From positions 17,112,001 to 17,176,000 of the forward strand of contig OX597825.1 of assembly GCA_951406725.2 (NCBI GenBank): a stretch of DNA of 64,000 nucleotides, read 5' to 3'. The stretch's first letter is position 1, and each line of letters opens with the position of its first letter. This DNA comes from Octopus vulgaris. Lineage: Eukaryota. Under the pieces are notes generated by a model. The model saw only the letters and a program-made list of their open reading frames with translations, was not told the origin of the DNA and did no database searches. The translations under genes and the position numbers were made by a program. Shown in pieces: positions 27,521 through 53,374 of this stretch.

Positions 27521-27551
<31 letters not shown>

Positions 27552-27554
<3 letters not shown>

Positions 27555-27757
27555 TGCAGCGTGGAAGGTGTTCATAAGCCATTTAAGAAACACACAAAAA
27601 CCATTAGATACACTTCAACATTGAAATTTAATTTGCCAAAATATTTTCGTCGCTTTGAGACCGCGACCTATTCACTGTCAAAATTCCGTACTGTAATTAT
27701 TTTCGTTCTAGCACACGATCTCAGATCAGGCCACTTGCTATACATGTATATCTTCGT
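27552..27757 (-). mobile_element. Penelope-like pLTR element family E (copy 1)
   Basis: Clear similarity along ~200 bp to 49413-49630; carries a hammerhead motif. Confidence 0.65.
27632..27682 (-). ncRNA. Variant minimal type I hammerhead (core GUGAAUA)
   Basis: Minus: TTTGaCA GTGAATA G GTCGC-ggtctcaaa-GCGAC GAAA ATAT T T TGgCAAA. Confidence 0.55.
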
Positions 27758-34590: not shown

Positions 34591-34711
34591 GTATTTGTTT
34601 TATTGTTGTCTATAATAAGAAACGTAAAATCCTACCTGTCTGAGACCCAAGAATCTCGATCTATATTTGGTCTACATAGAAATGTTATACCATTTTGGAA
34701 TCATTTTGGAA

Positions 34712-35128
34712 AAGCGGCGAGCTGGCAGAAACGTTAGCATGCCGGGTGAAATGCATAGCGGCATTTCGTTTGCCGTTACGTTCTGAGTTCAAATTCCGCC
34801 GAGATCGACTTTGCCTTACATCCTTTCAGGGTCGATAAATTAAGTACCAGTTACGCACTAGAGTCGATATAATCGACTTAATCCGTTTGTCTGTCCTTGT
34901 GTGTCCTCTCTGTGTTTAGCCCCTTGTGGGTAGTAAAGAAATAGGTATTTCGTCTGCCATTACGTTCTGAGCTCACATTCCGCTGAGGTCGACTTTCCCT
35001 TTCATCCTTTCTGGTTCAATTAAATAAGTACCAGTTACGCACTGGGGTCGATGTAATCGACTTAATCCCTTTGTCTGTCTTTGTTTGTCCCCTCTATGTT
35101 TAGCCCCTTGTGGGCAATAAATAAATAT
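34712..35128 (+). mobile_element. SINE family B tandem dimer
   Basis: Full unit, then a second unit starting at ggtatttcgtctgcc directly after aaagaaata. Confidence 0.9.
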
Positions 35129-48960: not shown

Positions 48961-49412
48961 TGAGTACATATGTTACATACACACACACGCACACACAAAC
49001 TATGCATCACGCTTGTCAAACTTTTGTCAAACTGCATGTCAAAGTTTTGTTGGTATTTTGAATATTAAACACTGTACAAAGGTGAAGCTTGGTCCACGGA
49101 AAGATCCCATGTAGGTACGTACGTAGAGAACATTTCAATCTTATTGATTCGCTGCATACAAAGGTATGATGAGTTACTTATATTGAGGTGCTTTCAACTG
49201 TGTCACGCTTAATTGCAGGTGTACGACAATATCAATTTAAGGTAATGAAACAAAGTATTATCGTTATATTACCATTTTATTGTAATAACCAAACACACTA
49301 CCGAAGAATTGCAGGGAAATTACAAAACAAACACTATGCCCACATTCGTATATGTATATGCGTATAGATGTAAGTATGTACGTATACGTATATATATATA
49401 TATAAACAAACA

Positions 49413-49629
49413 AAAACAATTGCAGCGTGGAAGGTGTTTGTAAGCCATTTAAGAAACACAGAAAAGCCGTTCGATTCACTTCAACATTTAAGTTTAATTT
49501 GTCAAAATATTTTCGTCGCTAAAATCCGCGACCTTTTCAATGACAGAAATCCGTGCTTCCACGCTGCAATTGTTTTCGTTCTAGCACACGATCTCAGGTC
49601 AAATCACTTGCTATGCAAGTATATCTCCG

Positions 49630-49630
<1 letters not shown>
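49413..49630 (-). mobile_element. Penelope-like pLTR element family E (copy 2) with 21 bp inverted duplication
   Basis: aaaacaattgcagcgtggaag (49413-49433) / cttccacgctgcaattgtttt (49556-49576) enclose a hammerhead motif; flanked by (TA)n. Confidence 0.7.
49498..49547 (-). ncRNA. Variant minimal type I hammerhead (core UUGAAAA)
   Basis: Minus: TGTCA TTGAAAA G GTCGC-ggatttta-GCGAC GAAA ATAT T T TGACA. Confidence 0.6.
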
Positions 49631-49682
<52 letters not shown>

Positions 49683-49765
49683 TGTATATATATATTATTT
49701 ATATTATTATATGATTGAACGCCACGCATCGTTTACCAAGTAAGTTGTGTATATATATATATATA

Positions 49766-49837
<72 letters not shown>

Positions 49838-51834
49838 CGTATATACATATACGTACACAATACAGACACACGCATACATACAGATTTACCCATTCCACAT
49901 TAGTGTGAATTATGTTATGGCATAATCAGAATAGGAATATTATGTTTGCAAATGTACAGTGAAACTCATATTCTGCATCAATTTGTCATTCAGGTACATA
50001 AATTGAAATTTATGGAGCAGTAGAACAAGTAGACTTATTACAATCTCTTCGAACTAACAGAATGTCGTCTTCGTTTTAACCCATTTCATCACTTATTTCC
50101 CATGCAGCTCTGTGTGTCACTCTTTTGCCATGTATTGTACATTCACGCATATATTTTCCAGTGTGTTCCTCTTGTTTTATAATTTTGTTGTAATTTGATC
50201 GAAGCATTTGTTTGCTATTTCTCTCACGTAGAAGAACCATTTAGACGTAATCTGTTGCTGAATCCAGAGTGTGTATGCTATACGCTGGATAAATATCTAG
50301 TTTTACAACAACTCCAATTTACATAATTAATACAACTCTACATATTTTAAGATGAAACACTTTCCCAAAATGACGATTATGCTATAATATATAAGATACA
50401 TAAGACATTAATTTTTATTTTATTAGTAGTAGAAACACCACGCATTCAGCCAAATCAATGCTATAATGATATTAATTGTCTAACATGATAACGGTCGAGT
50501 CTATCTGATAGCAATAAATTAATTCAGTTGTCAAGTGCTCTGCAAGCCTTTGAAATTATATACTGATAGTTAATAGCTCTTAAATTAAGTTACCATATAA
50601 AGCCTATATCGGAATACTTATTCACATAATGACAATTCTGGCACCAATTGGACATTGATATCTCTAAATTAGAACCCCTTCGATTTTATGGCTCTACGCA
50701 TATCAAATATTTCTTGTGGTGCCTATTGACTACCATGACCAGTAAATGCTGCAGCATCAAAAACTGCTAGTTTGATCATCGACTGCGTATGGACGAGTTA
50801 TATATTCTTCTTAAACAGAAAAAATAAAATAAAACATTTCTCATGCGTAAATTTATCAACACTAAAGCTAGCATCAAAGCAATACAGTCTCGTTTATTGG
50901 TTTGATATCCTATATATTATACTATATATTTCCAAACTACAATTACAAGTCTTAAGTGCGATTCTAGGTGGAAATGTTAGCAGCGTTTACAAGCTTCCAT
51001 CTATTGAATTTATATTCAATTGTCCAGCCATTCGAACAATGTAGTAATGTTTATGAGCAAATTATATATTACTACGGGTTTTTATTTTCATGTATATTGC
51101 TTCTTTCATTTCTATATTTCTGTTTCATAAAATTTTCGGTTTTGGAACTTACAGCAACCAAGCCTTCGTTAGTATTCTCGTTTGCTTTTCAACACGAAAA
51201 TGATGGCAGACGGAGCATAAATAATAAAAAAGGAAATAACATAAGAATAATGTAATAAATCTGTATAAGAGCGAAACAAATTTTGAAAATTCTAACGAAA
51301 TGACAGATAAATAAACTACGTTCTGAAAATGGGACATCATTAGTGATAGCCTTAGGTACCTTCAACGTTGTTTTCTGTTTTAATAGAACAATTCCTGGCT
51401 AAAACATAAAGGATAATTAATAATAAATACGAGAAACACGCACATAAACACACGTACATGCAAATACACATCAACATATATACACTCAAAAATACGCACA
51501 AAGCACACATACACACATATATCGAATTATCGAATTGTTCTATCTTTTTTTTTATATTCTAAAGCTTTTACATTCTAAAAGCTTTCAAGGAGTCAAAAAA
51601 TATACAACTTATTTATTTGACTTGATTTTACGATTTACGTCTCCGGGATATGGAGGTCTTCTATACTTGAAAGATATATAATTTTTTTGACTACTTCCAT
51701 TTATTTCATATCAGAGAAACTCGAATTACATTTATGTAGTTTGTCTGCATCGTATGACCTGCAGAATGTCGATTCATCCCACGAATGACGACAGAATATA
51801 TTCTAATGAATTGAGTATGAAATAATCATTGGCT

Positions 51835-52537: not shown

Positions 52538-52960
52538 AATACCTATTTCTTTACTACCCACAGGGGGCTAAACACAGAGGGGATAAACAATGACAGACAA
52601 ACGGATCAAGTCGATTATATCGACCCCAGTGCCTAACTGGTACTTATTTAATCGACTCCAAAAAGATGAAAGGCAAAGTCGACCTCGGCGGAATTTGACC
52701 TCAGAACGTAACGGCAGACGAAATACCTATTTCTTTATTACCCACACGGGGCTAAATATAGAGGGGACAAACAAGGACAGACATAGGTATTATGTCGATT
52801 ACATCGACCCCAGTGCGTAACTGGTACTTAATTTATCGACCCCGAAAGGATGAAGGGCAAAGTCGACCTCAGCGGAATTTGAACTCAGAACGTAGCGGCA
52901 GACGAAATACCGCTCAGCATTTCACCCGGCGTGCTAACGTTTCTGCCAGTTCGCCGCCTT
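52538..52960 (-). mobile_element. SINE family B tandem dimer
   Basis: Two units with the same aaagaaata/ggtatttcgtctgcc junction as 34712-35128. Confidence 0.9.
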
Positions 52961-53374
52961 ACCTATTTAGTAATACCTGTTACTATGTAAATCTTGAAGC
53001 CGCCAAACCTGTTCCAAAAGAGAAGAAACTTTAGTGTAGAACGATTTGATGGCTAACAAACTGCATTGCTCTTAGTGTCAATATTTTCTATAGTGACACC
53101 GAATGCAGGTAACAGCCATACGTCGATCCATCAGTGTAAAATGATAGGTGGTCTAGCCAAAGACTTCCTAACAACAGAAATAATTAGGATGAAAATGAAT
53201 GTAACGTCTTTTCTCTTTGTTTGTTGTGGTCTACATTATTTGACAAAAGTTTGATCTCATGAAAATGGGGGACAACGCTGTATTTTTGTGACTTCGACAA
53301 TAATAATGAAATTGCGCGAGATCGTCGCATATACTTGTCTGTTTCTCAATAACTTGATTACTATGGTTATTAAT

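Follow-up and report, generated by a model that had tools for sequence, protein, structure and literature searches.

Two hammerhead motifs in the window

The window (the whole analysed stretch of 64,000 nucleotides of Octopus vulgaris DNA, contig OX597825.1, positions 17,112,001 to 17,176,000) contained two minus-strand hammerhead motifs, copy A at 49545-49500 and copy B at 27634..27680. Inspection of the window sequence confirmed the elements originally predicted for both: the cores TTGAAAA and GTGAATA, an extra G, a GTCGC/GCGAC stem II, GAAA, a palindromic AATATT and a UU. Copy A was ordered as stem I (TGTCA), core (TTGAAAA), extra G, GTCGC, an 8-nt loop and GCGAC, followed by GAAA, AATATT, UU and TGACA. 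Copy B had the same stem II, GAAA, palindrome and UU, with a 9-nt loop in stem II and, in stem I, an A·G mismatch at the third pair. The prediction of one fold in both copies therefore held for the motif parts that they share and failed at this mismatch. The features were as follows.

49500..49545, minus strand: minimal type I hammerhead of copy A, read from the sequence
49545-49541/49504-49500, minus strand: stem I of copy A, read from the sequence
49534..49540 (49540-49534), minus strand: core of copy A, U3-U4-G5-A6-A7-A8-A9, differing twice from the source (G3...C8)
49533, minus strand: extra G of copy A
49532-49528/49519-49515, minus strand: stem II of copy A
49514-49511, minus strand: GAAA of copy A
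49511-49506, minus strand: palindrome of copy A
between 49505 and 49504, minus strand: predicted cut of copy A, from hammerhead numbering
49408..49557, minus strand: sense segment of a Penelope-like pseudo-LTR in copy A, -52 to +97 from the predicted cut
49418..49448, minus strand: first codons of the parent ORF within copy A, cut off where the insertion ends
49556..49633, plus strand: inverted 3' end of the element in copy A, +71 to +149, ~60-nt tail included
49632..49851, no strand: (TA)n-rich microsatellite adjoining copy A (Tandem Repeats Finder)
27634..27680, minus strand: hammerhead of copy B, core G3-U4-G5-A6-A7-U8-A9, sequence inspected
27675-27669, minus strand: core GTGAATA of copy B, one C-to-T away from the source core
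27668, minus strand: extra G of copy B
between 27639 and 27638, minus strand: predicted cut of copy B
27549..27693, minus strand: sense segment of the pseudo-LTR in copy B, 86.2% over 145 nt to L143
27691..27760, plus strand: inverted 3' end (+79 to +149) in copy B, 81.4% over 70 nt to L143

The two copies had been described as elements of ~200 bp, which was not what was found: each was made of two pieces, a sense segment and, attached to it, the 3' end in inverted orientation. The sense segment of copy A matched the ORF-linked natural copy L143 at 94.7% over 150 nt and stopped at the first of the family's two 3' ends, and its inverted arm matched L143 at 92.3% over 78 nt in the opposite orientation. 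Copy A also contained an ATG at 49448, 56 nt past the predicted cut; the same ATG opened an RT/GIY-YIG ORF in the loci L241 and L242. The adjoining microsatellite was likely the target site of copy A, and (TA)n flanks were common in the sample of copies of the family. Copy B clustered with an older subfamily, characterized by a 9-nt loop II. Copies A and B were the sole members of their family, named G3-C8 below, within the window. A repeat whose tandem period is 184 bp was also present in the window as two inverted copies (34708-35127 and 52544-52963; 88% over 420 nt).

Both motifs had the type I hammerhead order (stem I, core, stem II, GAAA, short stem III, NUH, stem I), copy B with its one stem I mismatch. 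U4, G5, A6, A9, G12, A13, A14, A15.1-U16.1 and H17 were retained in copies A and B and in the ORF-linked copies, all of which also had the extra nucleotide between 9 and 10.1, G10.1-C11.1 and the palindromic stem III region. Single-strand folding z-scores of the two window copies (-1.45 and -0.42) were not significant. Cofolding of two intact copies gave a swap of stem II, and a stem III dimer was not predicted. The Rfam hammerhead models had no match in the window at E<=1. At E<=10, a G3-C8 copy and a copy of a sister family with C3-G8 gave microsatellite noise and no hammerhead. Since the C3-G8 copy was also missed, the G3-C8 swap is not the cause of the Rfam miss.

The G3-C8 family, its parent element and its sister families

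The 2.8-Gb genome was searched by pattern. The patterns kept several letters of the core constant; one of the flanks, with all seven core positions free, gave 6,684 matches against 1 control match, and as a repeat the window motifs are far beyond chance. The core was GTGAACA in 86 of the first 100 listed of these matches (hand count). With a pattern leaving positions 3, 7 and 8 free, 95 of the first 100 listed of 6,902 matches were G3-C8 (hand count), and at six loci with long open frames all ten hammerheads were identical and G3-C8, so a Watson-Crick 3-8 pair was present at the level of the family. The original prediction was right in seeing a hammerhead family that has an extra G, a core other than CUGANGA and a place in parent elements. 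That searches for CUGANGA overlook it was likewise correct; the source core was GUGAACA. Per 100 listed matches, 3 departed from the consensus at position 3, 4 at position 5, 5 at position 8 and 3 at the free position 7. Catalytic positions thus departed as often as the free one, which fits neutral decay.

The hammerhead was located in the leader, within the pseudo-LTR of an RT-bearing element. From long copies an ORF was reached upstream; in L143 there was a 1,025-aa open frame (P0001) with a YVDD motif and a C-X3-C-X2-C linker. The Pfam GIY-YIG model matched this ORF with 25.4 bits (cut-off 22.6). The Pfam RT model did not match it; its named relatives, the best of them from Octopus vulgaris, were annotated as RT-domain proteins. 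The end repeat ran straight into the ORF at L241 and L242, where the ATG was 56 nt after the predicted cut. Eight other long copies joined a P0001-type ORF, and direct copies 4,261 nt apart flanked one ORF. The parent ORF was 54% identical to the ORF of a sister element over 814 aa and 38% identical to it at the N-terminus. Pseudo-LTRs, inverted 5' segments, a tail at one end and microsatellite targets were present as Penelope-like traits. Judged from its sequence, the parent is an endonuclease-positive Penelope-like element, of Neptune/Nematis type by its CX2-5CxxC linker as defined in the available text of Craig et al. 2021 (PMC8557442). L060/L091 was rejected as the parent, its GIY-YIG ORF being a different element fused to the 3' part of the G3-C8 family. 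In this chimera (L091:5800-7815; G000:C1:13167300-13169300) a foreign Penelope-type RT-thumb/GIY-YIG region led into the family's 3' part and end repeat. The repeat was covered by contigs of four sequencing runs, presumed to be RNA; such contigs convey no ends, strand or level. The motif of the clan had 120 matches in metagenomes, 1 of them with both stems, which were treated as chance.

The original prediction had read U-A in copy A and G-U in copy B as covarying states of the 3-8 pair. Both copies depart from a G3-C8 source, and within the family positions 3 and 8 were found to vary independently, the outcome that the original prediction had named as its own refutation, as 57 of the 65 A8 matches kept G3 (the others had A3 in 4 cases, U3 in 3 and C3 in 1). 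Two of the three U3-A8 matches had other flanks and belonged to sister families. The third was copy A, the sole U3-A8 copy within the G3-C8 family, where about 0.5 would be expected by chance if the changes were independent. Among the first 100 listed of 209 non-G3 matches, 88 kept C8, as did 22 of 26 U3 copies. The near relatives of copy A were often G3·A8, and neither U3-A8 nor G3·U8 occurred in any ORF-linked copy examined. It is true that copy A could still pair at 3-8, that natural cores with U3-A8 are known (PMC3088659, PMC4209133, in the portions available) and that U3-A8 occurred here in sister families (L183, L207, L198, L148, L157). Even so, we regard it as extremely improbable that active source elements of the G3-C8 family had U3-A8 and G3·U8 as compensated states. 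The rarity of U3-A8, the independence of the two positions and the single C-to-T change in copy B make both window states best read as neutral decay, most likely through post-insertion mutations. The 3-8 pairing of copy A is a matter of chance and that of copy B a wobble, and the U-A/G-U pairing that had been highlighted is an artefact of comparing two decayed copies. Three same-strand G3·A8 copies with ~3.4-kb spacing, truncated past the hammerhead, were observed at L093 (G000:C2:171239234-171246116) and probably represent a local tandem duplication.

The real 3-8 covariation is between families, with the G3-C8 clade set against sisters with C3-G8, U3-A8 and U3·G8. A looser pattern that excluded the stem III of the G3-C8 family gave 1,577 matches against 21 in controls; the first 100 listed comprised 63 C-G, 13 U·G, 5 U-A, 4 G-C and 1 A-U pairs and 14 mismatches. 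In a tree of 62 end repeats constructed with the core removed, from which four rows were dropped, 18 rows were split from 44 with a support of 97/100. The clade of 18 had G3-C8 or decays thereof, four deeply diverged rows among them keeping C8, and the remaining 44 rows were pyrimidine-3/purine-8. The swap to G3-C8 was a single event on the tree, which leaves n=1 for compensation. Among 54 rows, where 20 of those from sister families had been chosen by hand because their cores were not C-G, pair 4 of stem II was A-U in 33 and G-C in 17, and pair 3 of stem I was U-A in 23 and C-G in 13; the shuffle controls for covariation in these rows ignore relatedness. U16.1-H17, which the pattern did not fix, was retained in 51 of the 54. 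The palindrome was imperfect in most sister families. Old sister copies were repeatedly U3·G8 (L181, L185, L192, L196, L199, L201, L206), a group that may represent a family with a wobble core instead of decayed copies.

Damaged cores had also been amplified. There were 234 G8 matches, mostly in older subfamilies, and 94 of the first 100 listed had G3. They exceed about 9-fold the approximately 27 G3-to-C changes, which belong to the same class of mutation. Not one of the 29 G8 copies read had the youngest loop type, vs 30 of 63 copies in an unbiased sample. These data point to old source elements with a mismatched G3·G8 pair, but the G8 copies were scattered without forming a clade in a tree, and old copies with C8 exist; 22 rows that failed parsing were absent from this tree, the mis-parsed row L295 was included and a later tree dropped two rows. 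About eight of the 29 G8 copies (L433-L462) had in common another loop II and an insertion of 2 nt behind stem I. C replaced A9 in 85 of the first 100 listed of 4,474 matches to the C3-G8 sister family (A9 in 12, T in 3). A sister copy with a 1,312-aa open frame was C9 as well (L145:9391-9397). A9 matters for hammerhead catalysis; an effect of A9C on cleavage was not found in the literature searched. The multiplication of lineages with damaged cores weakens the idea, part of the original prediction, of a hammerhead kept functional in its parent elements.

Insertion ends and the role of cleavage

Insertion ends were mapped on the first 100 listed matches to a pattern downstream of the cut, all of which were compared with a reference ending at +149. 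The 3' ends fell at +84 to +93 in 38 copies and at +143 to +149 in 55, that is, at two sites ~60 nt apart which both lie within the first 31 codons of the ORF. The 5' end was at or before -51 in 46 copies and at -44 to -41 in 21 more; copies usually started about 20 nt before stem I. The whole hammerhead was included in 67 of the 100 copies, 88 began before the cut and 12 had 5' ends at +5 or later; three 5' ends at -5 to -2 were blurred by T-run microhomology. None of the 100 began at the predicted cut (0 to +4). The absence of starts at the cut and the fixed 5' boundary near -58 indicate that the insertions derive from uncut RNA. This boundary may be a transcription start or a splice junction. 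It showed GAG in 15 of 64 copies where long copies have CAG or TAG, which could stem from a small spliced exon or from a cap-templated G. A branch-point-like CTAAC, a pyrimidine tract and a YAG, together resembling a splice acceptor region, were observed just before the common 5' boundary (L143:7545-7563; 490 exact matches).

Thousands of the copies were short and sharply bounded on the 5' side near -58, and few were long, as might be expected if the 200-bp units were an independent non-coding retrozyme or SINE replicating via ribozyme-cut RNA. The unit, however, consists of the leader and the first codons of the parent ORF, its ends fit internal priming rather than the cut site, and in the loci read the copies were solo or inverted, not head-to-tail. 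The non-coding head-to-tail repeats bounded by the ribozyme that define animal non-LTR retrozymes were thus not what was found, and we consider such an independent replicator very unlikely.

We hypothesize instead that the protein of the element starts reverse transcription inside uncut RNA at two internal sites, and that the cDNA would be copied back to the fixed 5' end, with a frequent fold-back producing the inverted arm, before insertion into (TA)n. The G3-C8 ribozyme may cut slowly, either as a dimer via the palindrome or with help from the element's protein, and cleavage would trim the leader off the ORF. Because a new insertion needs no cutting, selection on the ribozyme likely acts only over long times. 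Overall, there is a good probability that both window motifs are decayed solo pseudo-LTR insertions, that the G3-C8 source in the Penelope-like element likely self-cleaves weakly and that the states in the window most likely arose by mutation after insertion. We lean, by a small measure, towards the prediction that under helpful conditions the source G3-C8 RNA would show measurable cleavage.

The main rival holds that the clan no longer needs its hammerhead as a catalyst, the fold being a binding or translation-control element of the leader or a passenger, and that G3-C8 arose by drift through G3·G8. The lack of insertions that begin at the cut, the excess of G8, limited to older subfamilies, over the equivalent class of mutation at position 3, and the dominance of C9 in the sister family would all agree with it. 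So would two reports in the text available to us: ribozyme mutants of an anole element insert normally in vitro and its RNA-seq had no ends at the cut (PMC11167929), and Craig et al. noted that such ribozymes may simply parasitize elements (PMC8557442). Loss of function is countered by the retention of both G3 and C8 in diverged sister rows and in the youngest subfamily, by the retained U16.1-H17 and by the sister clan, where the first 100 listed matches were pyrimidine-3/purine-8 in 90 cases and purine-3/pyrimidine-8 in 7. The proposed G3·G8 intermediate is at odds with G8 copies that form no clade and with old copies that have C8. On balance we find this rival doubtful. We attach still less probability to the clan being a ribozyme that crossed an inactive valley, in which G3·G8 or lost-A9 sources multiplied, as they could if insertion needs no cutting, and slower selection then fixed G3-C8. 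Were this unlikely course true, a comparison of G3-C8, G3·G8, C3-G8/A9 and C3-G8/C9 would reveal the purpose of Penelope hammerheads.

Comparison with known hammerheads and Penelope-like elements

What hammerheads do for Penelope-like elements is described as an open question in the available part of PMC8557442. With C3-G8, G3-C8, U3-A8 and U3·G8 sisters, young long-ORF copies and damaged-core lineages in one genome, the octopus provides a panel for asking whether cleavage matters. The family of about 6,900 hammerheads was unseen by CUGANGA descriptors and Rfam, and descriptors should therefore admit all four Watson-Crick 3-8 pairs. Caution is also warranted, as covariation can be mimicked by two decayed repeat copies.

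Searches of the literature, which did not extend to Lunse et al., Hammann et al. 2012 and Przybilski and Hammann 2007, turned up neither a natural G3-C8 nor a cephalopod case. The accessible text of PMC6765202, PMC6155905, PMC8967140 and bioRxiv 10.64898/2026.07.22.740005 likewise contributed nothing on this. As an engineered variant, G3-C8 is in print, including in the available text of PMC11167929. Perreault et al. 2011 (PMC3088659) reported that the 3-8 pair covaries in nature, as it does here; the portion available reports U3-A8 and not G3-C8.

Cervera and de la Pena 2014 (PMC4209133, available in part) described minimal type I hammerheads that metazoan Penelope-like elements carry in their pseudo-LTRs. 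The octopus family resembles them in its pseudo-LTR position, short stems I and III, palindromic stem III region, G10.1-C11.1, extra nucleotide between 9 and 10.1, thousands of solo copies and opposite-strand pairs. The same source includes a natural U3-A8 variant in Schistosoma. In its Fig. S3, all 56 representatives start with CUGA or UUGA and none is G3-C8, in contrast to the octopus family. The published consensus for the extra nucleotide is H, with G once (Nasonia), whereas it was G throughout the clan studied here.

The anole Poseidon element PAc (Frangieh et al. 2024, PMC11167929, in the sections available) is similar in having its hammerhead at the junction of pseudo-LTR and ORF, AT-rich targets, uncut RNA as a template and a pair of internal priming sites that lie early in the ORF and delimit the tail; the two groups of 3' ends found here match those two sites. 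Its hammerhead needs protein, single mutants at 3 or 8 abolish cleavage while insertion in vitro is not blocked, and an engineered C3G/G8C double mutant partly restores cleavage. PAc itself is C3-G8 and its ORF begins inside stem II, whereas the octopus element has the swap naturally and its ORF begins 56 nt past the cut. Compared with PAc, the tail here is ~60 nt and a Cys linker is present, which the Penelope/Poseidon clade lacks. The Neptune/Nematis elements of Craig et al. 2021, as covered by the available text (PMC8557442), share with the octopus element an RT, the CX2-5CxxC linker and also a GIY-YIG at the C-terminus, as well as tandem and inverted 5'-truncated copies, a tail at one end and a (TA)n bias; the tail here is longer than the 30-40 bp described for them. 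The extra nucleotide, the palindrome and a natural U3-A8 are already published (PMC4209133, PMC3088659, in the parts available). Against the literature searched, the octopus adds a core variant with a family-level G3-C8 swap, in a known kind of ribozyme and a known class of retroelement.
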